From Clostridia bacterium (lineage in GTDB: Bacteria > Bacillota > Clostridia > TANB77 > CAG-465): 64,000 nucleotides of DNA. A program made the translations under genes and the position numbers. The notes under the pieces are model-generated. The model ran no database searches and was not told the origin of the DNA. It saw only the letters and a program-made list of their open reading frames with translations. Positions 9,098 to 61,899 of the stretch are shown piece by piece. The stretch lies in NCBI GenBank assembly GCA_036653755.1, contig JAVVTJ010000001.1, forward strand, positions 8,928-72,927, given 5' to 3'. Numbering within the stretch: position 1 is the stretch's first letter; every line of letters begins with the position of its first letter.

Positions 9098-9887
9098 GTG
9101 ATTATATTGAAAAAATATTGTATATTAGGAACGGATAGTAGAAGTTTAAAATTAAGAGAATTATATTTAGAAAGTGAAAATTTTGTAGCAGAATATGATG
9201 AATCTGATTATATCATAGCACCAATACCATTTTCAAAAGATGGTAATAATATAACTGGTGAAAAACTTACAGTAGATGATATTATTAAAATGTCTAAAAG
9301 TAAAGTTATATTTTCAGGTAGTATTTCAAAAGATATAAAAGAAAAATTTAATGTAAATAAGATAAAATATTATGATTTATTAGAGTTAGAAGAAGTAGCA
9401 ATTTTAAATAGTATACCAACAGCAGAAGGTGCTATACAAACAGCAATGGAAATTACAGATTTTACATTATGTAGTTCAAAAGTGCTTGTTATGGGATTTG
9501 GTAGAATAGGTAAAGTACTTAGTAAAATGTTACATGGAATTGGTGCTACTGTATATGTAGAAGCTAGAAAAGAAAAAGATATAGCAGAAATAATATCAAT
9601 GGGATATATTCCGATAAATTTAAAAGAAATAGATAAATACTTAGGAGTTTTTAATGTAATTTTTAATACAATTCCAGAAGTTATATTAAATAAAGAAAAA
9701 TTGGATATAATAAATAAAAAATGTTGTATTATTGATTTATCATCAAGTCCTCGGAGGAGTAAATTTTGAGTATGCTAAACAAATTGGAATTAATGTTGTA
9801 TGGGCGCTAGCTCTTCCTAGCAAAGTTGCACCATTTTCTTCAGCTGTATATATTAAAGAGGCAATTGATAAAATCATAGGAAAGTAA
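9098..9887 (+). pseudogene. dpaA: Dipicolinate synthase subunit A (SpoVFA/DpaA), interrupted by +1 frameshift at CGG 9752-9754
   Basis: Rossmann motif VLVMGFGRIGKVLS. ORF stops at 9769, but the +1 frame continues GGVNFEYAKQIGINVVWALALPSKVAPFSSAVYIKEAIDKIIGK* (DpaA C-terminus). Removing the C of cct-CGG-agg restores SSPGGVNFEYAK. No dpaB downstream (folD follows). Confidence 0.7.
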
Positions 9888-9897
9888 AGGTAAGCAA

Positions 9898-15602: not shown

Positions 15603-17391
15603 TCAGTTAAGTTTTGTCCGTTTTGTATTAATTATTTCTGTAAGATATTCTTTATCGATCAATTTAAATATTGTATCGTTTTTATTAGTTAATATTATTT
15701 TTATTTCTTGTTCTACTAATTCTAAATATTTAGGATCATATGTTTTAGGAAAAGGAGACTTTTTTCTATTTAAAACTTCTTTAGGAATATCATTTTCAAA
15801 TGCTTTTCTAAGAAGTGACTTTTCAATTGGAACTAAGGTACTTTTATTTAAACCAAGTTTCAGATTATATGGTATGTTGTATACATATTCAAAAATTTTG
15901 TAATCTGCAAATGGAATTCTAACATCTAAATCAGCATAATTTGCAGCTCGTTCTGTTCGTTCTAGTAAAGTATTCATAAACCATTTAATAGTAAGATATT
16001 GAACTTTCCTGAATTTTTTATTTTCTTCTGATTCATTATTTAAAAATGTAACATTTTTTAATGTATTTTTGTAATTATAATCAATATATTCACTTATTTC
16101 ATTTTTAGAAATAATATCTTTATTTATTAGATTTTCACGTATATTTTTGGATAGACACCATGGAAAAAAATTTAATCCATCATCGTCTTGTGTATTTATG
16201 AATTTTTTATCATAAAACCAAGGATAGCCTCCAAAAATTTCATCACTGCATTCTCCAGATAAACATATATTAGTATTTTTTTCTTTTATAGCCATGCAAA
16301 ATGCTAGCATTGATGAATCAACATCAGCCATGCCGGGCATATCTCTATTTATCATAGATGGCACAAGTAAATTATATAATTCATTAGCGTTAAAACTTAT
16401 ATTACTATGATTAGTATTTAAATGTTTTTGCATAATTTTAACATAATCAGAATCAATAGTAGGTTGATAATTATTTGATATAAAATCTGATTTATTGTTT
16501 TCGTATTCAATTGAAAAAGTATTTAAATTTTGACTTTTATTTTTAGCAATAGTAGATAGTATGCTAGAATCTAATCCACCTGATAACATACAAGATATAG
16601 TTTCGTTATTTATTTGTGTATTAGTTGCATTCATAACTAATTTTCTAATTTTTTTTATACAGGTATTTTCATCATCGTTACAAGGAGCTGTTTTTAAATC
16701 CCAATATTTGTATGTTATAAGTCCCATATTAGAATAAATTGCGTAATGACCTGGAAGTAATTCAAAAATATCTTTGAAATATGTAATTCCGGGTGTATGT
16801 GCAGGGCCGAAGAGCAATAAGTTCTAGTGCTGATTGTTTATCTATTTTAGCTTCTATATTAGGTATACAAAGAATATCTTTTATATTAGTAGAAAAAATA
16901 AAGTTATTATCGTTTTTCATGTAATATAGTGGTTTAACTCCAATTCTATCTTTTGCTAAAAAAATAGTGTCATTAATTTTATCATAGATACATATTGCAA
17001 AAACACCATCAAGTAATTCTAAAAATTTCTCTTTATATTCATTATAGCAAGAAAGTAATATTTCTGCATCTAAATAAGTATCCAAATATTCTTCAGGTAT
17101 GACTTTACTTTTTCTTAAATTAGTTTTTGTATTAAAGCAGTATCCAAGTTTTATTAATTTATTTTTTATATCTTTTATATTATAGATTTTTCCTGTATGC
17201 ATTATGCAATATTTATTTTTGTCAAAGCTTTTTGAGAAAAATCCATTAGATAGATTAATATGTTTAGTCTTAAACATATTAATACATTCGGATATAGAAA
17301 AACGTTTTTTTAAATTTATGTGCATTTCTTCTATAAAATTACAGTTAGAAATATCATCATTGTAATTTACAATGCCTAAATATCTATTCAT
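15603..17391 (-). pseudogene. asnB: Asparagine synthetase (glutamine-hydrolysing), interrupted by +1 frameshift at CGG (plus-strand 16807-16809)
   Basis: N-terminal GATase ORF (17391-16762) and C-terminal synthetase ORF (16817-15603) with SGGLDSS PP-loop. Removing the C of ctt-CGG-ccc joins ...ELIAL-GPAHTPGITYF... A second in-frame CGG lies 5 codons before the stop (15620-15618). Confidence 0.7.
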
Positions 17392-17780: not shown

Positions 17781-18956
17781 ATGTTAAAATTTATCACATA
17801 TAAATATAGAATATATCCAAATGATGTTCAAAAAGAAAAAATTGAAAATAATTTCAAGTGCTGTAAAAGTATATATAATAAGCTACTTTGTTATAGAACG
17901 GAAGAATATAATAGATATAAAAAATATGTAAAATATTGTGAAAGAAATGACAAATTTGTTGATAAAAAGTATTTTAATAGTAAATGTAAAATACCATCAT
18001 TATCTAAAATTAAAGAATTTTATCCTGAATTAAAGAAAGCAGATAGTTTAGCTATATGTAATGAATGGTGTAATCTTAATAAATCTTTTACAAATTTTTT
18101 TAGTCATAGAGGAAAATTTCCTAAAAGCAAGCAATATGATGATAAGAAAAGTTACATAACTTGCTTGGTAAATAACAATATAAGAATAAATAATAATAGA
18201 TTAAGATTACCCAAAATAGGTATGATCAAAATAAAACTTTATAGAAAAATACCAAACGGTTTAGTTATAAAAAGATGTATAGTAATGTCAGATAAAATTG
18301 ATAGATATTATGTATCAATTTTAGTATGCACAGAAATTCCAAAAATAAATAAAAAATTAAATATTGACAATATATTAGGATTGGATTTTAAAATTAGTGA
18401 TATTTTTGTTGATAGTAACGGAAATACTCCTAAATTTATAAGACCATATAAAAGTTCAATTGAAAAACTAAAATACTTATCAAAAATATTATCTAGAAAA
18501 ATAAAATTCTCTAAAAATTGGTATAAACACTTAAAACATATACAAAAGTTACATAAAACAATAGCATTTAAAAGAAAAGATTTTTTGGATAAACTTTCTA
18601 ATGTAATATCAAAAAAATATGATGTTATAGTAGCTGAAACATTATCTATAAAAGAAATGACTTCAAAATTTGATGACGGTACATATATATATGACACAGG
18701 CTATTGTAAATTTTTGACAATGCTAAAAAATAAATTAAATAGTCTTGGAAAAAAAATAATTAAAGTAGATAGGTGGTTTCCGTCAAGCAAAAAGTGTAGT
18801 AATTGTGGCAGTATTAAAGAAGATTTGCTACTCGAAGAACGTGTATATTACTGTGATAAATGTGGGAAAATTCAAGATAGAGATGAAAATGCAGCAATAA
18901 ACATTGCAAATGAAGGTAAAAGAATATTAATTGAAAATATGTGCATAAATCAATAA
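17781..18956 (+). CDS. tnpB: TnpB (OrfB_IS605) RuvC-like RNA-guided endonuclease family protein
   Basis: 391 aa. N-terminal YKYRIYPN HTH, RuvC-I LGLDFKISD, RuvC-II VIVAETLSIKEM, zinc finger CSNCG...CDKCG, RuvC-III RDENAAINIA. Confidence 0.85.
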   Translation: MLKFITYKYRIYPNDVQKEKIENNFKCCKSIYNKLLCYRTEEYNRYKKYVKYCERNDKFVDKKYFNSKCKIPSLSKIKEFYPELKKADSLAICNEWCNLNKSFTNFFSHRGKFPKSKQYDDKKSYITCLVNNNIRINNNRLRLPKIGMIKIKLYRKIPNGLVIKRCIVMSDKIDRYYVSILVCTEIPKINKKLNIDNILGLDFKISDIFVDSNGNTPKFIRPYKSSIEKLKYLSKILSRKIKFSKNWYKHLKHIQKLHKTIAFKRKDFLDKLSNVISKKYDVIVAETLSIKEMTSKFDDGTYIYDTGYCKFLTMLKNKLNSLGKKIIKVDRWFPSSKKCSNCGSIKEDLLLEERVYYCDKCGKIQDRDENAAINIANEGKRILIENMCINQ

Positions 18957-26765: not shown

Positions 26766-28218
26766 ATGAATGTAAGTTATGTAATGATACAAGCGTGGAT
26801 AAGAATTATTGAAGTGTTAGTGATACTACTTTGTGGTATGATATTATACAGATATTCAATATTAAATAAAATCAAAGAAAATAAATTAATCAAAAAGCAA
26901 GCATTTACTGATCCACTTACTGGTAAGGGTAATAGGCATAAATTTTTAAATGATATTGATGAACATCTAAAAAAGAAAAACAAATTTGCCGTTTGCTTTA
27001 TGGATTTAGATGGTTTTAAACATGTAAATGACACACTTCGGTCATGATGCAGGTGATTTACTTTTAATTGAGCTATCTAGAATGTTAGAAAAGGGTTTAC
27101 CATCAACATCTATTTCATATAGGCTTGGTGGAGATGAATTTGCAATAATAATGGACAAGGTAAATACAATAGAAGAAATATCTAAAATACTAGATAATCT
27201 AAAAATAACTTTAAATACACCAGTCCTTATATCTGATACCAAAATTGTACTTGAATATAGTTTAGGTGTTGCAATTTATCCAACTGATGGTAAAACAAGA
27301 ATAGAACTTATGGGATATGCAGATGATGCTATGTACTACATAAAGGAAAATGGCAAAAACAGTTATTATTTTCATAATGAAGCATTAAAAGCAAAATTAA
27401 ATAATAAAAAGAAAATGGAAATAGATTTAAAAGCAGCACTTGAAAAGCAAGAGTTTAATATTGAATTCCAACCAAGAGCTAATCTTAGTAATTTGAATGA
27501 AATATGTTTAGAAGCATTAATATTTTGGCAACATCCTGTTTTAGGAAAATTAAGTTCAGAGTATTTTATAAAGCAAGCAGAAGAAATGGGTATTGTAATT
27601 TATTTAGATGAATTTGTACTTAGAAAAACTTGTGAAAAGCTAGATGAACTAAATTTAGAAGGATACAAAAATGTTAAAATGGCAGTAAATATCTCTAACT
27701 TACACGCTAAAAGACATGATTTTGTAGATAGATTATGTTCAATAGTAAATGAATATGCCTTTAATAAAGGTGATATAACCGTTGAATTTACTAATAAAGT
27801 AAATGTTAAATATTTATCTAGTTATAAATATTTAATTGATAATTTAAAAGAAGTAGGAGTATCAGTATGTGTATCTAATTTAGAACTTAAATATGAAAAT
27901 CTAATTGCATTTAAAGGTTTTCAAATAGATGAAATTAAATTAAATGTTGGATATATATCAAAAGGCTCTACTTTAAATAAATTGCTACTTAAAGATATTG
28001 TAACTATTTGTAAAGATTTAGACTATTTAACAACTATAATTTGTATTGAAGATGAAAATGAATTAAAAGCAGCACTGGATGCTAAGGCAGATAAAGTTCA
28101 AGGTAATTATTTATTTAAAAAAATATCATCTCATGATTTAACTGACTTCATAATAAATTATCCTGCTTTAAGAGATGGACTTGAAAATGTTGTTAAAAAA
28201 TTAGAATATAAGGGGTAG
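26766..28218 (+). pseudogene. Membrane-anchored GGDEF-EAL protein, interrupted by +1 frameshift at CGG 27039-27041
   Basis: ORF1 ends ...FKHVNDTLRS*. ORF2 (ATG 27028, +1 frame) continues THFGHDAGD...RLGGDEFAI then an EAL domain. Removing the C of ctt-CGG-tca gives the canonical ...NDTLGHDAGD... Confidence 0.7.
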
Positions 28219-29925: not shown

Positions 29926-31587
29926 CTAACAACCTACAATTTGATTTTTTACAGCTTGTAGTTTTTGCTGTAAAATACCTTCTAATAATGTTATGGCATC
30001 TAAATTACTCTGCACGCTATTATTTATAGCAAGTAAATTTGCCTGACTAATTCCTGGAATAGCAAGCATAGCTTGAATTTTTTCTCCTTCAGCGTTTATA
30101 ATGTGTGATAAAGCAGTTTGCACTAAGGCAACAGATTCTACTAAATCAGTACTAGACTGGCCTAAATTATATAATGGACGATGAAGAGATACTATATTAC
30201 TATTTACAGTATTAGTTATAATATCACCAGAACCACTAGAAATAGCTGTATAAGTTGCACTTGAAGTGTTTAGTACAGGCGATGCACCAGCAGTAGAAAT
30301 TGCATGGAATACAACAGTATGACTAGTTCCACCTGCCATATTTCCCAAAGTAAATCCTGTATTTGGATTTGCAGTAACATTTGCAATAGTATCTATTGTT
30401 ACACTTCCTGAAACAAATACTAATGTTGGATCTAAAACATCTTTAAAAAATACATTATCAGCAGTTATAGTAGTAGGGTTAGTTATCAAAGTAGTTATTG
30501 TTACATCAGTTCCGTTATATATAACAGAAGGTGATGCAGATTTTTTAACAGTAACTAAATCTTGCATAGTAACTCTATACATAGCAACATCATCAATTAA
30601 ATAGTCATTTCCTTGTGCAGCTTGACCTTGGCTTAAAATTCTAATTGTTACATTGTTATTTCCTTGTGCATTAAATTTAAAACCATTTTGGTACCATACA
30701 GGTATAGCAGTAGGATTTATTGAATTTACATTTTGTAATAATAAAATACTTCCATCTGCTGCTAAAACTTCTAAAGCAAGTTTGGGATTTTCATAACCAG
30801 AACTTGCATAAATTAAATTTAAAACCCAAGCAGTAAGAACATAATCAGCAAATGGTACAGTAGTTACATTTTGTGTAAATATAACAGAACCTGGATTTGC
30901 TCCGTTTACTAACATAAATCTTCCTGTTTCTATTCCTGTTGTATGATCAGATACTCCCCACCAAGGACCATCAGTAATACGTGTATTCATTACAGTATAT
31001 TTTCCATCAGATGGAGTAGTTGAATTAGTATAAACAAATCCTGGTGTAACTCCTGGATAAGGTTCTGTAAAATTTGTAGTCATTGTAGCAGTTCCTGGTG
31101 CAAATGATCCCATTTTTCCGTTATCTGCTACTGTTATTAAATTTGAACCTGTTAGAATAACACCTGAAAAATCAAGAGGTTTAATTCCTACTGGTCCATC
31201 AATAAAGTTTTCATTTGTAAAGTCAGAAGCTGCTACTGTAATCTTTATAAGATTAGGTGTAACTGCATCTAAAGCATCGGTTAAAGCAGGTGGCGCAAAA
31301 GTTAAAGCTGAAATTGGTGGCTCAACTTCTGGGGGCTGAGTCATAGCTGCTTGATTTGCAGTAAAATCAACTGGACTTAATGTTCCAGGTGTTCCCCATG
31401 TTTCTATAATATAATAATCACCAGCAGGAACATTAGTAAATAAATATTTTCCAGCTGCATCAGTTATTGCAGTTGCTCCTTTTCCTGTTACGGTATTATA
31501 TAATGCAACAGGTATTCCTGGCATATTAGTGCCTGGTGTTGGTAAATGTGCAGCATTATATGCAACTAAACCAGATACGTTTGGCAT
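29926..31587 (-). CDS. Surface/spore-surface-type protein: Cna-B/SdrD-like fold, CBM-like domain, DUF11-like repeat, conserved C-terminal helical module; no signal peptide
   Basis: 553 aa. IPVALYNTVTGKGATAITDAAGKYLFTNVPAGDYYI (Cna B/SdrD B-type), GNDYLIDDVAMYRV (CBM-like), VKKSASPSVIYNGTDVTITTLITN...VSGSVTID (DUF11-like), Thr/Ser/Asn-rich. AAAGGAG RBS. Confidence 0.6.
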   Translation of the reverse strand: MPNVSGLVAYNAAHLPTPGTNMPGIPVALYNTVTGKGATAITDAAGKYLFTNVPAGDYYIIETWGTPGTLSPVDFTANQAAMTQPPEVEPPISALTFAPPALTDALDAVTPNLIKITVAASDFTNENFIDGPVGIKPLDFSGVILTGSNLITVADNGKMGSFAPGTATMTTNFTEPYPGVTPGFVYTNSTTPSDGKYTVMNTRITDGPWWGVSDHTTGIETGRFMLVNGANPGSVIFTQNVTTVPFADYVLTAWVLNLIYASSGYENPKLALEVLAADGSILLLQNVNSINPTAIPVWYQNGFKFNAQGNNNVTIRILSQGQAAQGNDYLIDDVAMYRVTMQDLVTVKKSASPSVIYNGTDVTITTLITNPTTITADNVFFKDVLDPTLVFVSGSVTIDTIANVTANPNTGFTLGNMAGGTSHTVVFHAISTAGASPVLNTSSATYTAISSGSGDIITNTVNSNIVSLHRPLYNLGQSSTDLVESVALVQTALSHIINAEGEKIQAMLAIPGISQANLLAINNSVQSNLDAITLLEGILQQKLQAVKNQIVGC

Positions 31588-31805: not shown

Positions 31806-33185
31806 ATGAGAATGTATGATATTATTGAAAAAAAGAGAGATAAAAAAATTCTTACAAAAGAAGAAATTGAATTTTTTATAAGCCAGTATTGTTTAGATAA
31901 AGTTCCAGATTATCAAGTTTCCGCTTTACTTATGGCTATATATTTAAATGGAATGGAAACAAATGAATTATATTATTTAACTACTGCAATGGCAAATTCT
32001 GCTAAAAAATTAGATTTATCTTGTTTAAAAGAAGATGGTAGTATTATTGTAGATAAACATTCTACTGGTGGAGTTGGAGATAAAGTAACACTTTTAGTTC
32101 TACCAATTGTAGCAAGTTTAGGTGTTAAAATAGTTAAAATGTCTGGAAGAGGTTTAGGCTATACAGGTGGTACAGCAGATAAATTAGAATCTATAAAAGG
32201 TTATGATTTATTTAAACCATTAGATGAAGCAGTAAAACAAGTTAAAGATATTGGTGTTTGTTTAATATCACAAAGTAGTGAAATTGCATTAGCAGATAAA
32301 AAGTTATATGCATTAAGAGATGTAACTGCTACTGTATCTTCTATTCCACTTATTGCATCATCAATAATGAGTAAAAAAATTGCATCAGGTGTAGATAAAA
32401 TAGTTTTAGATGTTACTGTTGGAAGCGGTGCTTTTATGCAAGATTTAGAAAGTGCTAGAATTTTAGCTAAAACTATGGTTGACATTGGTAAAAAAGCAGG
32501 TGTAGAAACCAAAGCTGTTATAACATCAATGGAGCAACCACTTGGAAAAAGTGTTGGTAATGTTGTAGAAGTAAAAGAAGCAATATCTTTTCTTTTAGCA
32601 GATGAATCAACATTAGAGCTATATGAAAATAAAGAATTAAAAGAAATAGTATTTGAAGTAGCAGCACAAATGATTAAAATGGCTGGTTTAGGAGATAGTA
32701 TTGAAAAAAATAAAGTAGATATAATGAAAACTATAACTTCAAGAAAAGCTTATGATAAATTTATAGATTTAATAAAATCACAAGGTGGTCATATACATAA
32801 TGTATATATGGATTGGATGAATTTAAGTTTAGATATGCCTATACTTATAGATAATGTTAAATATATGAAAGAAATATATGCAGATAAAGATGGTTATATA
32901 ATTGGTATAGATAGCAAAAAAGTAGGAGAAGCATTAGTTGCACTAGGTGGATCTAGAACTAAAAAAGATGATAAAATAGATTATGCAGTAGGTTTTGAAT
33001 TTGCTAAAAAAATTGGAAGTAAAGTTAAAAAAGGAGATTTAATTCTCAATGTATTATATAATGATAAAAATAAATTTAATGAAGCTTTTGCATATATAAC
33101 AGATGCAATAAAAATAGATAAAATAGAACAATCAATGTCAAATGTATTAAAATCAAAACCAGCAATTTTAGATATAATAAGTTAG
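31806..33185 (+). CDS. pdp: Pyrimidine-nucleoside (thymidine) phosphorylase
   Basis: DKHSTGGVGDK, TGGTADKLE motifs. Start taken at ATG 31806 (MRMYDIIEKKRD). TTG 31794 is an alternative. Confidence 0.85.
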   Translation: MRMYDIIEKKRDKKILTKEEIEFFISQYCLDKVPDYQVSALLMAIYLNGMETNELYYLTTAMANSAKKLDLSCLKEDGSIIVDKHSTGGVGDKVTLLVLPIVASLGVKIVKMSGRGLGYTGGTADKLESIKGYDLFKPLDEAVKQVKDIGVCLISQSSEIALADKKLYALRDVTATVSSIPLIASSIMSKKIASGVDKIVLDVTVGSGAFMQDLESARILAKTMVDIGKKAGVETKAVITSMEQPLGKSVGNVVEVKEAISFLLADESTLELYENKELKEIVFEVAAQMIKMAGLGDSIEKNKVDIMKTITSRKAYDKFIDLIKSQGGHIHNVYMDWMNLSLDMPILIDNVKYMKEIYADKDGYIIGIDSKKVGEALVALGGSRTKKDDKIDYAVGFEFAKKIGSKVKKGDLILNVLYNDKNKFNEAFAYITDAIKIDKIEQSMSNVLKSKPAILDIIS

Positions 33186-33219
33186 AAAATAATATACTTT
33201 TGTTACAAAATAAAAGATT

Positions 33220-33253
33220 AGATAAGCACAAAAAGCTTATCTTTTTTGTGCTT
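33220..33253 (+). terminator. Rho-independent terminator after pdp
   Basis: aagcacaaaaa/tttttgtgctt stem with T-run. Confidence 0.55.
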
Positions 33254-33566
33254 AAAATAAAAAAGATAAAATTACATGAAATAATTATTTTTTTTACACA
33301 GAAACATCTGTTTTATATCATTTTGTTTATAGTTTAATTTACTATTTTTTTAATAAAGTGCCTTGCATGTGATTTTTGTATTTAACAATTTTTAAATAAT
33401 AACCTGAAAACTATTGATAAATAAGAAAAAAGTTAAATTTTTCATTTGACTTTTTTTATAATTTTTGATATACTGTATTATGTAAAATTAAAGTAAATTT
33501 ATTAAAATATAAAAAGTTGTAATGATTTAATATTTGTGAGTTAATTTAAAATGGAGGATAGTTATA

Positions 33567-34447
33567 TGGAATTTAAAGAAGAGTTAAATATATATACATT
33601 AGAAATAGAAAAGTATTTAAAAAATAGTATTAAGATAGTAGATGTTCCAGAGAGGTATTTGTTAGAATCTATGCAGTATAGTTTGTTAGCTGGAGGAAAA
33701 CGTCTAAGACCTGCTATTATGCTAGCTACATATAATATATTTAAACCGGATTATATATCAGCTATGCCATATGCAATTGCTATGGAAATGGTACATAATT
33801 TTTCATTAATTCATGATGATTTACCTGCGATTGATAATGATGATTTAAGACATGGAAAATTAACAAATCATAAAGCTTTTGGAGAAAGTACAGCAATACT
33901 TGCAGGAGATGGACTTTTAAATAGTGCATATATTTGTATTTCTAATGAGTTATTAATTAAAGAAAATTTAGATAATAAATTAAAAGCCTTTAATGAATTT
34001 TCTAATGCAGTACATAAAATGATATTAGGCGAATTTGTAGATATTGACTCAGAAGGTAAAAAAATATCATGTGAATTATTAGAATATATGCATCAAAATA
34101 AAACTGGAGCACTTCTTAAAGCATCTGTTAAAATAGGTGCAATTTTAGCTGGTGCAAGTGAAATTGATATACAAAATTTAGAAAAATATGCAGATAAAAT
34201 AGGTTTAGCTTTTCAAATAAAAGATGATATTTTATCAGAAATAGGCGATGAAAAAGTTTTAGGAAAACCAGTTGGAAATGATAAAAAAATGGAAAAGTGT
34301 TCTTTTGCTACAATATATGGAATAAAAAAATCAAATTTAGAGTTAGAAAAAAATATTAATGAAGCAATAGAAATTACTAAAACTTTTAAAAATAATTCTA
34401 AATTTTTTGAAGATTTTGCTATATATATACAAAATAGAAATAAATAA
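33567..34447 (+). CDS. ispA: Polyprenyl (farnesyl/geranylgeranyl) diphosphate synthase
   Basis: First and second Asp-rich motifs LIHDDLPAIDNDDLRHG and FQIKDDILS. ATG 33567 after GGAGGA. Confidence 0.85.
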
Positions 34448-34496
34448 AGTATATATTTAGTTATATTTTTTAAAACAAATATATATAGTTTAAAGT

Positions 34497-34525
34497 AACA
34501 ACTATATTTTATGTAACATAGTATA
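34497..34525 (+). promoter_or_regulatory. Possible sigma-K-like (late mother-cell) promoter for the Cys-rich ORF
   Basis: AC (34498-34499), 17-bp spacer, CATAgtaTA (34517-34525) resembling the CATA---TA -10 consensus, 30 nt before the ATG. Weak inference only. Confidence 0.25.
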
Positions 34526-34555
34526 TAGTAGCGTAATAGCTAGGAGGTAAAAATT

Positions 34556-34744
34556 ATGTTATGTAATAATAATCAAAATTCTTGTTGCAAATGTTGTAAT
34601 TGTTGCAATTGTTGCAAAAAAGAAGAACCAAAAATGGAATGCAAATGTTGTTGTTGTAAATGCTGCTGCTGTAAAAAAGAAGAACCAAAACCAATTTGTG
34701 ATTGCTGCAAATGTCAAGAACACATGGGCAAAGAAAGCTGCTAG
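34556..34744 (+). CDS. Small hyper-cysteine-rich protein (62 aa, 27 Cys)
   Basis: AGGAGG RBS 9 nt before ATG. MLCNNNQNSCCKCCNCCNCCKKEEPKMECKCCCCKCCCCKKEEPKPICDCCKCQEHMGKESC with internal CC-K-CC / KKEEPK repeats. Terminator-like hairpin downstream (~34805-34835). Confidence 0.6.
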   Translation: MLCNNNQNSCCKCCNCCNCCKKEEPKMECKCCCCKCCCCKKEEPKPICDCCKCQEHMGKESC

Positions 34745-34958
34745 TAAATATATAGGGAAGCTAACAGCTTTCCATACATATAAAGAAAACAATTTTTTCT
34801 CCGAAAGAGTGCTAAATATTAGTACTCTTTTTGTTATACTTTTTTGGCATAAAAATTGTGTAAAAATGTCGTAAAATATCAGTTTTTGTACTACTGTTAT
34901 TGATTTATTAAGGCTTTTGTAATATAATAAAGATATAAATTAAGTAAAGAGGTATATT

Positions 34959-37900
34959 ATGCAATTAAAGAAAATTCAAATACAAGGATTTAAATCATTT
35001 GCTGGTAAAACAGAAATTGATTTTTTAGAAGGTATAACTACAATAGTAGGTCCTAATGGTAGTGGTAAAAGTAATATAGCAGATAGTGTAAGATGGGTTT
35101 TAGGTGAGCAAAGTGCTAAAATTCTTCGTAGTAGTAAAATGGAAGATGTTATATTTGCCGGTACTGAAAATAGAAAAAAAGTAGGTTTTGCAGAAGTTAG
35201 TATATATTTAGATAACTTAGACTGCTCACTTCCTATTGAATATAGCGAAGTTGTAGTAACTAGAAGAGTATTTAGAAGTGGAGAGAGTGGTTATTTAATA
35301 AATGGGACAGAATGTAGACTTAAAGATGTTCAAGAACTGTTTTTAGATACAGGAATAGGAAAAGATGGTTATAGTATTATAGGACAAGGTAAAATTGATG
35401 AAATTTTATCTAATAAATCAGAAGAGCGAAGAGCTATATTTGAAGAAGCTTCTGGTATAATGAAATATAAAACAAGAAAAGATGAAGCTAATAAAAAATT
35501 ACAAAATTCAGAGATTAATTTAGCAAGAGTTACAGATATTTTAGCAGAGATAGAAACTACAATAAAACCACTTGAAGAAAAAAGTATTAAAGCTAAACAT
35601 TTTTTAAATTTAAGAGATAAATTAAAAGAATTGGATGTTAATATATTTTTAACAAGTTTAAAAGAAAACGCTCAAATGCTTGCTACATTAGATAGTAGAA
35701 TTGAGATATTTCAAAATGATATAAATTTAGAAGAAAAAGATGCACTAGCAATAGAGGCAGCAAAACTTAATTTAAAAAATAGACAAGAAGAAATAACATT
35801 AAAAATAGAAGAAGCACAAACTAAATTTTTTGAATTTGAAAATAACATAGAAAAAGTAAATTCAAAAGTGTTATTGAATAAAAGTAATATTGAAAATGAT
35901 ACAGAACATATAACAAGGCTTGAAAATGAAATATCAGGAGATATGCAAAAAATATCTGCTTTATCTGATGAAATAAAAGTAAAAATAGAAAAGAAAGAAT
36001 CACTTAATTTAAATAAATTAAAATTTGAAAATGAGTTAAAAGAAAAAGAAATTTGTCTTAGTGATATATTAAAAACATTAGATGAAAAGGGTTCATATAT
36101 TGAAAATTTAAAATTAGAGATTGAAAAATACGGGGATAGTATTGATGAATGTAATTTAGCTATAACCTCAAATGAAGCTACAATTCAGTCAAATAATAAA
36201 CAGCTTCTAAGTATAACTAAAAATAGTAGTAATTATATATTTGAAAAAGATAAATTAATGATGGAAAAAGAAGACGTTACAAATATACTTAATTTAAATA
36301 ATTCAAATTTGAAAAAAATTGATAATGATGTTGAAAGTAATAGTAATGTACTTACAGATATTTTAAATTCATCAAATAGTGTAAAAAAAGAAATAGATAA
36401 ATTAAATGAAGAAATTATGACTATGAAATCTAAACATAGTTATTTAACTAATTTAAAAAATGAAAATGAAGGATATTATAAAAGTGTTAAATCAGTTTTA
36501 GATTATGTACAAAGCAGTAATATAAGTAATGTATATTCAACTGTAATAGATAGTATTAATACTGATGAAAAATATGAAAAAGCTATTGAAGTTGCTCTTG
36601 GTAGTTTTGCACAAAATATAATTGTAGAAACTCCAAATGATGCTAAATCTTTAATAGAATATTTGAAAAATAATTCATATGGAAGAGCTACATTTATGCC
36701 ACTTTCAAATATGAGAAAAATTCAAAATGAAAGTGATAAGTTATATAGAAATTTTAAAGGATATATAGCAAAGGCAATAGAGCTAGTTAGATTTGATAAA
36801 AAGTTTGAAGATGTAATTGCTACTGCTTTAAATCAAAGTATAGTAGTAGATACATTAGATAATGCAAATGAAATTTATTCCAAAGTTAAAGGAAATGTTA
36901 GAATAATAACATTAGAAGGTGAAGTTATATCTTCATCAGGAAGTATAACTGGTGGACAAACTAGTAGTAAAACAACAGGACTTTTAGGTAGAGTTGAAAA
37001 AATTAAATATTTAGTAAAAGATATAGCTAAAAAAGAAAATGAAAAAGAAAAATTAAATATAGGATATAATGAAATATTTGTTAAACAAAATGAAATAGAA
37101 GATAAATTAAATACATTGAAAAATTCAAGGGATAACGCAAATATTGAAGTTGCAAAATATGCAGAAAAATTTGAGAATATTAAAAAAGAAATTTTAAAGT
37201 TAGAAGAAACTGCATTTAAATCAGATGATATTAAAAATAGTTTAAATTTAGAAAATACAAAACTTACAGAAGAGATTAATTTATCTAGAAAAGAAATAAA
37301 TAAAATTAATGAAGAAATAAATTCTAGAAACATAGAAGTAGAAGAATATTTTAGATTTAATCAAGCAAAACAGCAAAATATCAATTTACTAAATGAAGAT
37401 ATTGTAAATCTTAAAATTTCATTATCATCATTTGATGAAAGTAATTTATCTATAGATGAAATGAAAGAAAAGTTAGAACTTGATATATCAAATTTTGAAG
37501 AAGCTATTGATAGAAGAAACAAACAAAAAGAAGAGTATTTAATTGAAATAGAAAAATTTACAGAAGAGATTAATTTATCTGGAAAAGAAATAGCAGAAAT
37601 TACCACATTTAAACAAGAGTACTTAAATATATCTGAAAAACTTAAAAATGATAAAAAAGATTGCTCATCTAAATTAGATATATTAGAATTAAAAATGCTT
37701 GAAAGTGTTAATAAAATAGGTAAAATAAAAGAAGAAAAAACTAAAATAGAAAGTAGAAAAATTAAGTTTGATATAGAAATAGAAAGCTTAAAAAATAATA
37801 TGTGGGATAATTATGAACTAACTATTTCATCTGCAAAAGAGTATGCAAAAACTCTTCCTGTGATTGAGGATACTTCTAAAATTGTTAAAGAGGCAGATAA

Positions 37901-38516
37901 GATAAGAAATGAAATTAAATTATTAGGAGATGTAGATATTACATCAGTAGAAGAATATAATAATGTAAAATCTCGTTATGAATTTATTTTATCTCAGAAA
38001 AAAGATTTAGATGAAACTAAACAAAAATTAGAAAATTTAATATCAAATATGACAACTTTAATAAAAGGACAGTTTTCTAAACAATTTAATATAATAAATG
38101 AAAACTTTTCAGAAACATTTAAAGAATTATTTGGTGGTGGAAAAGCTTCACTTTCACTTACAGATGAAAATAATATATTAGAATCTGGAATAGAAATTCA
38201 GGTGCAACCTCCTGGTAAAAAGCTTCAAAGTATGATGCTACTCTCAGGCGGAGAAAGAGCACTTACTGCTACTGCGTTATTGTTTGCAATACTTAAAATA
38301 AAAGCGCCACCATTTTGTATATTAGATGAAATAGAAGCAGCATTAGATGATATAAATGTACAAAGATTTGCAGAATATATTAAAAAGTATTCTAATGATA
38401 CACAATTTATTGTAATAACTCATAGGAAAGGTACTATGGAAGTTGCTAAAACTGTTTATGGTGTAACAATGGAAGAATATGGTATATCAAAAGTTATATC
38501 AATGAAAATGAAATAG
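34959..38516 (+). CDS. smc: Chromosome segregation protein SMC
   Basis: 1185 aa. N-terminal Walker A GPNGSGKSN, long coiled coils, hinge, C-terminal LSGGE signature and Walker B ILDEIEAALD. Confidence 0.95.
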   Translation: MQLKKIQIQGFKSFAGKTEIDFLEGITTIVGPNGSGKSNIADSVRWVLGEQSAKILRSSKMEDVIFAGTENRKKVGFAEVSIYLDNLDCSLPIEYSEVVVTRRVFRSGESGYLINGTECRLKDVQELFLDTGIGKDGYSIIGQGKIDEILSNKSEERRAIFEEASGIMKYKTRKDEANKKLQNSEINLARVTDILAEIETTIKPLEEKSIKAKHFLNLRDKLKELDVNIFLTSLKENAQMLATLDSRIEIFQNDINLEEKDALAIEAAKLNLKNRQEEITLKIEEAQTKFFEFENNIEKVNSKVLLNKSNIENDTEHITRLENEISGDMQKISALSDEIKVKIEKKESLNLNKLKFENELKEKEICLSDILKTLDEKGSYIENLKLEIEKYGDSIDECNLAITSNEATIQSNNKQLLSITKNSSNYIFEKDKLMMEKEDVTNILNLNNSNLKKIDNDVESNSNVLTDILNSSNSVKKEIDKLNEEIMTMKSKHSYLTNLKNENEGYYKSVKSVLDYVQSSNISNVYSTVIDSINTDEKYEKAIEVALGSFAQNIIVETPNDAKSLIEYLKNNSYGRATFMPLSNMRKIQNESDKLYRNFKGYIAKAIELVRFDKKFEDVIATALNQSIVVDTLDNANEIYSKVKGNVRIITLEGEVISSSGSITGGQTSSKTTGLLGRVEKIKYLVKDIAKKENEKEKLNIGYNEIFVKQNEIEDKLNTLKNSRDNANIEVAKYAEKFENIKKEILKLEETAFKSDDIKNSLNLENTKLTEEINLSRKEINKINEEINSRNIEVEEYFRFNQAKQQNINLLNEDIVNLKISLSSFDESNLSIDEMKEKLELDISNFEEAIDRRNKQKEEYLIEIEKFTEEINLSGKEIAEITTFKQEYLNISEKLKNDKKDCSSKLDILELKMLESVNKIGKIKEEKTKIESRKIKFDIEIESLKNNMWDNYELTISSAKEYAKTLPVIEDTSKIVKEADKIRNEIKLLGDVDITSVEEYNNVKSRYEFILSQKKDLDETKQKLENLISNMTTLIKGQFSKQFNIINENFSETFKELFGGGKASLSLTDENNILESGIEIQVQPPGKKLQSMMLLSGGERALTATALLFAILKIKAPPFCILDEIEAALDDINVQRFAEYIKKYSNDTQFIVITHRKGTMEVAKTVYGVTMEEYGISKVISMKMK

Positions 38517-60584: not shown

Positions 60585-61899
60585 GTGAAAACAGTAGCTT
60601 TTTATACATTAGGATGTAAAGTAAACCAATATGAAACAAATTTAATGATAAAACAATTTGAAGATAATAAATATACAGTTATTGATTTTGAAAATAAACC
60701 GGATGTTTTTGTTATTAATTCATGTAGTGTTACAAATTTATCAACAAGAAAAACAAGACAAATTTTAAGTAGAGCAAGAAAATTAAATGATAAAGCTGTT
60801 ATAATTTTAGTGGGTTGTTATGCAGAAGAAATTAATTTTGAAAATACAAATAAGTTAATAAATAATGCAGATATAATATTAGGAAATGAAGAGAAAAAAA
60901 ATATTGTAGAATATTTGAATAATTATATTCAAAATAAAGATGTTTTAAATAATAAAATGTTTAAAGTTGAAGATATTTCAAAAGTTAAAAGATATGTTCA
61001 AAAAGATAAATTAGAAAAAAGTATTACAGTTAGAGAGAGTATTAAAATAGAAGATGGTTGTAATAATTTTTGTTCGTATTGTATAATACCATATACACGA
61101 GGTAGAGTTAGAAGTAGAAGTTTAGAAGATATAGTTTGTGAAGTAAAAAATGTAGCTAAAAATGGTAGTTGTGAAATTATTTTAGTTGGAATAGAAATTG
61201 CATCTTATGGTTTAGATTTAAAAGATGATATTTCTCTTATTGATGTAATAGAACAGTTAGATAAAATATCTGAATTAAAACGTATTAGACTTCGGTTCTA
61301 TTGAGCCTAGATGGCTTACTGATAATAATATTGAAAGATTAAGTAAAGTAAAAAAATTATGTAATCATTTTCATTTATCTGTTCAAAGTTTAAGTAATTC
61401 TGTTTTAAAGCGAATGAATAGAAAATATACAAGAGAATATTTATTTGATATTACACAAAAAATAAGAGATAAATTTGAAGATGTAACCTTTACTTGTGAT
61501 ATTATAGTAGGATATATTGATGAAACTGATGAAGAATTTTTAGAAACATTAGAAGGTGTAAAAAAAATAAGATTTAGTGATATACATGTATTTAAATTTT
61601 CTAAAAGAAGCCATACAAGAGCATATAATTTAGATAGTAGTGTTGATGGTAATGTAGCATTAAAAAGAAGTGAAGAATTAATAGAATTAGGTAATAAATT
61701 AAAAATAGAAGTTTTAAATAAATATTTAGGTCAAAATATAAAAGTTTTATTTGAAGAATATAAAGATGGATATTTATATGGATATACATCAAATTATATT
61801 AAAGTAAAAGTTAAGGGGGATAAAAACTTATGGGGAAAAATTCAAGAATTAAAATTAATCTCATTAGAAAAAGATTTAATTTTAGGACAGATAAAATAA
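60585..61899 (+). pseudogene. mtaB: MiaB-family tRNA methylthiotransferase (MtaB-like), interrupted by +1 frameshift at CGG 61293-61295
   Basis: UPF0004 N-domain (VAFYTLGCKVNQYE), radical-SAM CNNFCSYCIIP. ORF ends ...RIRLRFY*. The +1 frame continues GSIEPRWLTDN...TRAYNL... (TRAM). Removing the C of ctt-CGG-ttc gives canonical RIRLGSIEP. Confidence 0.7.

Follow-up and report, generated by a model that had tools for sequence, protein, structure and literature searches.

Ultra-Cysteine-Rich Mini-Proteins behind a Conserved Sigma-K-Type Promoter Cassette: Candidate Spore Envelope Proteins of Uncultured Clostridia

1. Introduction

Cysteine-rich proteins recur in the envelopes of bacterial spores. 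The closest described systems to the one considered here are two exosporium morphogenetic proteins of Clostridioides difficile, CdeC, which has 405 amino acids (aa) and consists of 9% Cys, and CdeM, which has 161 aa and 8.7% Cys; CdeM contains two CNCCNCCRK repeats, and CdeC contains CCRQGKGK and CNECC motifs (PMC6101409). Both proteins are regulated by sigma-K, and in a sigK mutant cdeC (CD1067) is at 0.03 and cdeM (CD1581) at 0.01 of the wild type. Other Cys-rich envelope proteins with putative disulfide stabilization include CotY and CotZ from the crust of Bacillus subtilis, ExsY from the exosporium of the B. cereus group and CsxA, CsxB and CsxC from Clostridium sporogenes. A 2026 preprint argues for Cys-rich proteins and cooperative disulfide formation as a convergent strategy for spore envelopes, and Cys-rich proteins are emerging as a general route to robust envelopes, in which the known examples are folded and have about 9% Cys. 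Here, we describe a much smaller and more Cys-dense protein of 62 aa, encoded between an ispA-like gene and smc in a 64,000-nucleotide stretch of DNA, called the window below, from a Clostridia bacterium (GenBank assembly GCA_036653755.1, contig JAVVTJ010000001.1, positions 8,928 to 72,927). We suggest, with a probability of roughly 0.55, that it is a highly expressed cross-linker or matrix protein of the spore coat or exosporium, made late in the mother cell.

2. The Gene and Its Protein

The gene was first pointed out in an earlier note that was made by a model from the sequence alone. The 62-aa translation quoted there agrees exactly with the open reading frame (ORF) listed in Table 1; the start given, 34497, includes 59 nt of leader, and the ORF itself begins at 34556. 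The note had also counted 27 Cys (44%), and this number has to be corrected to 23 of the 62 residues (37%). The protein contains 11 Lys, one His and no aromatic residues, and no signal peptide was found in it. Its N-terminus reads MLCNNNQNSCC, and both repeats reported in the note occur twice, CCKCC at residues 10-14 and 33-37 and KKEEPK at residues 21-26 and 40-45; a CNCCNCCKK motif is also present. A single-sequence AlphaFold 2 (AF2) model has low confidence, with a mean predicted local distance difference test score (pLDDT) of 58.

The ORF is real and coding, and not a product of chance, because it is the only stop-free segment with at least eight Cys per 30 residues in the six frames of the window, because the tandem DNA repeats inside it have periods of 9 and 15 nt, both multiples of three, because its Cys codon usage is unlike that of housekeeping genes and because its relatives, described below, have ratios of nonsynonymous to synonymous substitution rates (dN/dS) below one. 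As for the codons, Cys is encoded by 13 TGT and 10 TGC (43% TGC) in this ORF; seven housekeeping genes of the window together have 68 TGT and 11 TGC (14%), and the GC content of the host genome is 25%. The larger share of TGC fits selection either for translation efficiency or against slippage within the repeats. The earlier note had allowed for a chance ORF if expression signals or conservation in related genomes should be missing; both are present.

The homology and HMM searches proposed in the note found no homologue outside the host clade, and the relatives emerged from synteny and a DNA-pattern scan instead. Pfam and NCBIfam scans of the window peptide, read down to E <= 10, matched no family, including the metallothionein models and those for precursors of ribosomally synthesized and post-translationally modified peptides (RiPPs). 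There were likewise no matches to the peptide in a word-indexed phmmer search of 5.8 billion clusters, in an exhaustive phmmer run against 1.84 billion representatives or in a sequence search of the PDB. The exact sequence is missing from the cluster collection despite being called as a gene in assembly GCA_036650815.1, and the back-translated N-terminal pattern M-[LF]-C-N-x-N-x-N-x-S-C-C likewise matched nothing when metagenomes were scanned with it. A profile search with the family alignment retrieved just six proteins, all from the same clade and named "hypothetical" wherever the source names them. The family has no annotation, is invisible to HMM searches and has no homologues outside one clade of uncultured Clostridia.

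3. Relatives of the Gene

A genome scan with the neighboring IspA protein led to metagenome-assembled genomes (MAGs) of two related Clostridia, whose loci we designate L002 and L003. In both of them a Cys-rich ORF lies immediately upstream of smc and encodes MFCNRNFNRSCCPTCRPCC(EKHETCC)x5KKH, with an N-terminus like that of the window protein. SMC homologues then served as anchors for further loci, and scanning metagenomes for the conserved leader pattern added six more contigs. Wherever a match to this pattern had enough downstream sequence, a small ORF of the family followed, and nearly all of these ORFs are Cys-rich. The same leader-DNA pattern has no matches in viral contigs, and so we see no phage link for it. 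By synteny and the DNA-pattern scan, the family totals 17 distinct copies in nine related Clostridia genomes or contigs, with products of 36 to 99 aa and 12% to 42% Cys. MAGs of the clade include GCA_036650815.1, GCA_028704735.1 and GCA_036681025.1; Clostridium sp. CAG:571 and Candidatus Merdicola are more distant relatives of the host clade.

The usual arrangement consists of two tandem genes directly upstream of smc, as in L027, L028, L036 and L038, whose SMC proteins have 70-72% identity to that of the window. The window gene does lie between ispA and smc, as stated earlier; it is not a singleton but belongs to a small paralogous family. The A-type member of a pair, e.g., MLYDENKCCYEHKCCNENKCC...KEDYCKCYCKCL..., has an acidic tail and a conserved DYCKCYCKCL motif. 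The B-type member has a conserved N-terminal part of 33 residues, M.CNKEFD..GQDVGEVCF.LKLTPSCKK, that is followed by variable Cys/Pro-rich repeats similar to KKPEPCC. The most extreme B-type member is a 36-aa peptide with 42% Cys, MCCCNNCCCQICIPCCRRCIPCCPRFITCCTRCRIW. No small gene was found before smc in L026 (75% SMC identity), L029 or L037 (both 59%), and therefore the family is narrow and the locus is dynamic.

The proteins diverge quickly. Mean global identity within the family is 35%, and the CC-containing repeats change from one member to another (CCKCC, EKHETCC, KKPEPCC, CIPCCRRC), while the CC-rich composition and an N-terminal M-x-C-N motif are retained. The 16 relatives have 2 to 14 aromatic residues each; most of them are Pro-rich, and their Cys residues occur mainly as CC doublets. 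In the alignable parts of orthologues dN/dS is 0.16-0.68, with synonymous changes between TGT and TGC, and the lengths of repeat expansions in nucleotides are divisible by three, as with the 21 nt in L002. The ORFs of the family are under purifying selection. The restriction to one clade, the tandem paralogues and the turnover of repeats fit the way in which proteins of the outer spore layers evolve.

One of the metagenome members is a 99-aa variant with a Met-rich paralogue beside it. This paralogue, in the second cassette of L034 (730..930, plus strand), encodes 66 aa with 14 Met and 8 Cys, CPMMMMKKQCPMM..., including CPMM motifs, and keeps the N-terminus MFCNQ. It hints that the selected trait may be the possession of sulfur or soft-metal ligands, beyond Cys alone.

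4. The 5' Cassette and Its Promoter

The earlier note had mentioned a weak CATA---TA element resembling the -10 box of sigma-K promoters. The element does exist, as CATAGTATA at 34517-34525, but it is not weak; it is part of a full consensus promoter that has the top score of the window. Sigma-K and sigma-E promoters of C. difficile, 25 and 41 in number, respectively, have been mapped by differential RNA sequencing (dRNA-seq) (Saujet 2013, PMC3789822, Table S7). We aligned them with consensus seeds, which may introduce some bias, and made a two-block matrix for each factor. The consensus from the 25 sigma-K promoters is AGTAACAA, a modal spacer of 14 nt and (G)CATAGTATA, and the window site at 34494-34525 consists of AGTAACAA, 14 nt and ACATAGTATA, i.e., it matches at 8 of 8 positions in the -35 element and at 9 of 10 in the -10 element. 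Its sigma-K score of 19.7 bits ranks first among 127,928 positions on both strands (the runner-up has 15.1), is higher than that of all 25 training promoters (maximum 19.5) and was attained by 2 of 500 block-shuffled windows. With the sigma-E matrix, the cassette segment of the window scores 5.2 and the whole intergenic region 10.5. For the 16 copies in the relatives, the sigma-K scores are 16.4-18.8 versus 6.4-11.0 for sigma-E. No promoter call of the sigma-70 type fell between ispA and the ORF. Judged by its sequence, the promoter is a consensus sigma-K-type site that is kept in all 17 copies; the gene itself is presumably sigma-K-dependent. The conservation of this promoter across nine genomes can also be taken as an argument for an active sigma-K in this clade.

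The promoter belongs to a larger 5' non-coding cassette with the consensus (A/T)GTA(G/A)CAA, 14 nt, ACATAnTATA, a stem-loop TAGCG-loop-CGCTA, TATAGGAGGTAA and the ATG. The mean identity of the cassette across all copies is 83% versus 35% for the proteins; A and B paralogues from the same genome, with proteins that are only 20-30% identical, show this level as well. Conservation ends abruptly upstream of the first element, and in the 451 kb of loci scanned, the motif occurs exclusively upstream of family members. If the start site is 5 nt away, as is usual for the C. difficile promoters in the table, the transcript would begin near 34530, where the stem-loop has its foot. The stem-loop of the window has a folding energy of -4 kcal/mol, and the energies for the leaders of three relatives range from -8.5 to -10.6 kcal/mol. 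The stem sequence is kept and the loop varies in sequence and in length, from 4 to 6 nt, which argues for an RNA hairpin over an operator for a dimeric protein; the reading of this inverted repeat as a repressor operator was rejected for the same reason. The ribosome-binding site (RBS) AGGAGG that the earlier note reported can be read directly, 8 nt before the ATG, and is kept in all of the copies.

5. The 3' Hairpins and the Transcription Unit

Two hairpins follow every family ORF. The first one has the general form GAAAAGC-TTAACA-GCTTTTC followed by TTACATA, and was seen in L002, L027, L028, L030, L034, L035, L036 and L038; its sequence is conserved even between paralogues whose ORFs cannot be aligned. 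It could be an mRNA stabilizer, a processing site or a protein-binding site. The second hairpin, 20-30 nt further on, is a terminator with a T-run, and in the window it corresponds to the terminator-like hairpin described earlier. Several base pairs of the hairpins show compensatory changes. Since smc has its own conserved sigma-A-type promoter, the small gene is a separate transcription unit.

An Rfam scan of positions 33000-36000 found no family at threshold. The sub-threshold match, MicX, had 23 bits versus a threshold of 75 and was taken as chance. We also considered a Cys-sensing leader-peptide attenuator and rejected it, because the gene ends in a terminator of its own, smc has a separate, conserved promoter and genes for Cys metabolism are absent downstream.

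Table 1. Features of the locus and of other genes discussed in the text (window coordinates).
Feature	Position	Strand	Basis and remarks
-35 element of sigma-K-type promoter, AGTAACAA	34494..34501	+	Identical to C. difficile sigma-K -35 consensus; relatives have TGTAGCAA
-10 element, ACATAGTATA, 14 nt after the -35 block	34516..34525	+	Match to sigma-K matrix; CATAnTAT invariant in 17 of 17 copies
5' stem-loop, TAGC-GTAATA-GCTA	34529..34542	+	Folding and conservation; at predicted transcript start
RBS, AGGAGG	34542..34547	+	Read directly, 8 nt before ATG; kept in all copies
Coding sequence of Cys-rich protein, 62 aa	34556..34744	+	Direct translation; also called as a gene in GCA_036650815.1
First 3' hairpin, GGGAAGC-TAACA-GCTTTCC, then ATACATA	34755..34773	+	Present after every family ORF; to 34780 with ATACATA
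Intrinsic terminator, 13-bp stem and T-run	34803..34841	+	Hairpin to 34831; sole terminator-like site in the region; covarying pairs across the family
smc promoter, sigma-A-type, TTGATT-17-TATAAT	34900..34928	+	Conserved in L002 and L003; marks where the unit of the small gene ends
Polyprenyl synthase (ispA-like), 5' side of the gene	33551..34447
smc, 3' side of the gene	34959..38516
A-ENA sporesilk subunit homologue, 90 aa	29638..29910	-	E = 9e-14 to PDB 9ihh_A
553-aa protein with DUF11, SdrD_B and SpaA-like domains	29926..31587	-	Precomputed A_ENA match
Dipicolinate synthase subunit A-like (DpaA-like)	9098..9888	+	NF006162, E = 2.5e-58, below family cut-off
Hydrolase_2 (SleB/CwlJ cortex-lytic type), C-terminal domain and DivIVA-like coiled segment	5148..5903	-	Domain match

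6. A Probable Function in the Spore Envelope

The earlier note offered metal binding and a spore coat or exosporium role as candidates. The promoter makes the link to sporulation stronger than it was; the function itself we infer. We favor the spore surface because of the consensus sigma-K promoter, the CdeM-like motif, the evolution of the family and the absence of a signal peptide and of an adjacent maturase or regulator gene. Additional reasons are the A-ENA, DpaA-like and SleB/CwlJ-type genes in the window and the recurrence of Cys-rich proteins in spore envelopes. The scenario would be as follows. Late in sporulation, sigma-K RNA polymerase would transcribe the gene in the mother cell. 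The mRNA, which is predicted to start with the 5' stem-loop, to have a consensus Shine-Dalgarno sequence and to end with two 3' hairpins, would suit a stable, heavily translated message. The small ultra-high-sulfur protein would be made in the cytoplasm and laid into the outer layers of the spore, either coat or exosporium. Once the spore meets oxidizing conditions, the vicinal Cys residues would form intermolecular disulfides, possibly along with metal-thiolate bridges, and this cross-linking would harden and insolubilize the layer. High expression, localization to the spore and the cross-linking chemistry are presumed on these grounds.

The resemblance to the C. difficile proteins is at the level of motifs and regulation. 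As judged from the described repeats, the CNCCNCCRK of CdeM is nearly the same as the CNCCNCCKK of the window protein. The promoter listed for cdeC, GTAACAA-15 nt-CATAGTAT, shares the architecture of the one in the window, and the predicted sigma-K promoter of the window gene parallels the sigma-K regulation of CdeC and CdeM. Like the family, CdeC and CdeM are lineage-restricted and of low complexity and have no signal peptide. However, CdeC and CdeM are longer (405 and 161 aa) and have only about 9% Cys, compared with 36-99 aa and 12-42% Cys here; the hosts of the family are a different, uncultured lineage of Clostridia, and no homology was detectable with the tools used. CotY/CotZ, ExsY and the Csx proteins differ in that they have folded domains that self-assemble into lattices (e.g., DUF3794/SPOCS), whereas the present family consists of very small repeat peptides for which no fold is predicted with confidence and no Pfam family is matched.

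Two other likenesses are more remote. Mammalian ultra-high-sulfur keratin-associated proteins and small proline-rich (SPRR) precursors of the cornified envelope are built from short CC-based tandem repeats with Pro, Lys, Glu or Gln, have about 30-40% Cys and form a cross-linked matrix in protective shells. The repeats of the family, such as KKPEPCC and CIPCCRRC, look similar and turn over quickly as well; this is an analogy between different kingdoms, with no common ancestry. The cry genes of B. thuringiensis, with a 5' STAB-SD element and a 3' stem-loop retroregulator, and the cpe gene of C. perfringens encode abundant mother-cell products. They share with the family a sporulation promoter, a 5' stabilizing element beside a strong Shine-Dalgarno sequence and 3' stem-loops, although there is no homology between the elements. 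The family's hairpins at the 5' and 3' sides are presumably stabilizing too, to judge from their positions and folding.

Several points weigh against a role in the spore envelope. The sigma-K consensus is AT-rich, and a score of 16.4 bits or more occurs in 18% of shuffled 64-kb windows; in addition, the matrix is that of a distant Clostridium, C. difficile, and was derived from promoters that we aligned with consensus seeds. The weight of the promoter evidence lies in its fixed position before every family ORF and in the invariance of CATAnTAT, and not in a score of 16.4. No terminator between ispA and the ORF was found in the window, and so vegetative read-through is possible. Homology to known coat proteins was not detected in the Pfam, NCBIfam, cluster, representative or PDB searches. 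Some members are enriched in metal-ligand residues, either His (EKHETCC x5) or Met (14 in the second gene of L034). Core sporulation genes (spo0A, sigK, spoIVA, etc.) were not found in the 64-kb window or in the inspected contig flanks. Finally, the dpaA-like gene is frameshifted: a single nucleotide seems to be inserted near 9750 (cct-c-gga-gga), and the C-terminal part of the gene is in another frame.

The enrichment in metal ligands leads to the main alternative, which we consider unlikely, namely a metallothionein-like peptide whose thiolates, joined by His or Met in some paralogues, would act as chelators of Cu(I), Zn or Cd or as scavengers of oxidants. Such a peptide could be cytoplasmic or built into the spore and would be compatible with sigma-K expression. 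Metallothioneins (eukaryotic MT1/2; bacterial SmtA/BmtA, PmtA) are small and very high in Cys, and the window protein resembles the classical ones in size and composition (62 aa, 37% Cys, Lys-rich, one His and no aromatic residues). Soft-metal ligands in the paralogues, with six His in the EKHETCC repeats of L002 and 14 Met in the CPMM motifs of the second L034 gene, point the same way, and the low-confidence AF2 model fits a peptide that has no stable fold of its own. However, the metallothionein models of Pfam and NCBIfam are unmatched at E <= 10, and no metal-sensing regulator, efflux pump or operator was found nearby, the sole inverted repeat being variably spaced (4-6 nt) and thus unlike the operator of a dimer. 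The promoter is of the sigma-K type rather than a stress type. Furthermore, most of the relatives are Pro-rich and have 2-14 aromatic residues, and the Cys residues of the family are mostly CC doublets beside Pro, Lys or Glu, unlike those of metallothioneins. If the family were metal-binding, it would be, to our knowledge, the first metallothionein-like family in Clostridia.

The richness in sulfur amino acids, which is kept rather than the sequence (as Cys, and as Met in one member), and the late-sporulation promoter might also suggest a non-structural reserve of sulfur or Cys in the spore, or a sacrificial thiol buffer, for use during outgrowth or for protection of an anaerobe against O2. 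We find this improbable, as sigma-K is active in the mother cell, whereas storage proteins such as the small acid-soluble spore proteins (SASPs) are made in the forespore, and as specific interactions are suggested by the conserved CC-x-K-x-E-P spacing and by the conserved motifs at the two termini.

A RiPP precursor, of the streptolysin-S/TOMM thiazole type or the SCIFF/ranthipeptide type with radical-SAM thioethers, would combine a leader that is conserved with a Cys-rich core that is hypervariable. The B-type members, with their conserved 33-residue N-terminus and variable Cys/Pro-rich C-terminus, have this appearance, and CCCC-like runs recall SagA-type cores. This explanation is nevertheless very improbable. 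Genes for a YcaO protein, cyclodehydratase, dehydrogenase, LanM, radical-SAM maturase, protease or exporter were not found within 5-10 kb in the window, L027, L028, L036 or L038, nor were any of them among the window ORFs that were scanned; the NCBIfam precursor families are unmatched (E <= 10); the A-type members are conserved at the C-terminus instead, and the window protein also lacks a leader-core pattern; and a sigma-K promoter is unexpected for such a product. Lastly, an ORF that arose by chance in TGT/TGC-rich DNA, or a locus for a non-coding RNA with functional 5' and 3' structures, for which one could cite the stronger conservation of the flanking non-coding cassette relative to the ORF, has a negligible probability, because a strong RBS is correctly spaced in 17 of 17 copies, the frame is kept through repeat expansions in multiples of 3 nt, dN/dS is below one, the M-x-C-N and DYCKCYCKCL motifs are conserved and all Rfam families are below threshold.

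If the spore-envelope role is true, the gene product would be of a known kind, a Cys-rich sigma-K-dependent envelope protein, and what is new is the extreme composition, the mini-protein repeats and the combination of a frozen cassette with a fluid ORF. It would extend the principle of Cys-rich spore envelopes to an extreme like that of the keratin matrix, with peptides of 36-99 residues and up to 42% Cys that can carry CNCCNCC(K/R)K as CdeM does. A broader and more tentative idea, which we hold to be possible rather than probable, is that in some uncultured Clostridia a part of the spore shell consists of ultra-high-sulfur mini-proteins made of repeats, with as much as 42% Cys, as a bacterial counterpart of the keratin-associated proteins of hair and of cornified-envelope proteins. 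Their expression cassette (sigma-K promoter, 5' stem-loop, Shine-Dalgarno sequence and two 3' hairpins) would be frozen while the coding repeats are reinvented again and again. In addition, the family provides an example of coding sequence that is invisible to HMM annotation, in which synteny and a conserved promoter and leader found what the homology searches missed. The 70-nt cassette is a ready-made probe for genes that belong to the sigma-K regulon in uncultured Clostridia.

7. Other Genes in the Window

The neighbors of family genes include ispA, smc and genes for thymidine phosphorylase, DUF3221 and YibE/F proteins. Three other genes of the window have products that are related to sporulation proteins. 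A-ENA, or "sporesilk", is a subunit of endospore appendages (PMC13111695), and a homologue is encoded 4.6 kb upstream of the Cys-rich gene, as the downstream neighbor of a gene for a 553-aa DUF11-repeat protein. These two genes may form a clostridial operon for an A-ENA fiber and its anchor. The truncation of the dpaA-like gene, noted above, is also seen in the NCBI deposit (220 aa); L037 has an intact orthologue of 266 aa with the same patatin-dpaA-folD synteny. No dpaB gene was found beside the dpaA-like gene. The Hydrolase_2 gene is preceded by a near-consensus sigma-A promoter, TTGACA-18-TATAAT, which is unusual for a germination enzyme. Upstream of the a-ena, dpaA-like and sleB/cwlJ-like genes there is no significant sigma-K site, the best being a weak one of 10.4 bits before a-ena.

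Besides dpaA, three further genes of the window appear to be split into overlapping or adjacent ORFs. They encode an asparagine synthase (15603..17391, minus strand), in which the GATase and Asn_synthase parts are separated, a GGDEF-EAL protein (26766..28218, plus strand) and a radical-SAM UPF0004 (MiaB-like) protein (60585..61899, plus strand). Together with dpaA, these genes suggest either frameshift errors in the assembly or ongoing gene decay. An IS605-family OrfB/TnpB gene (17781..18956, plus strand), whose product has a Cas12f1-like TNB domain, adjoins the split asparagine synthase gene.

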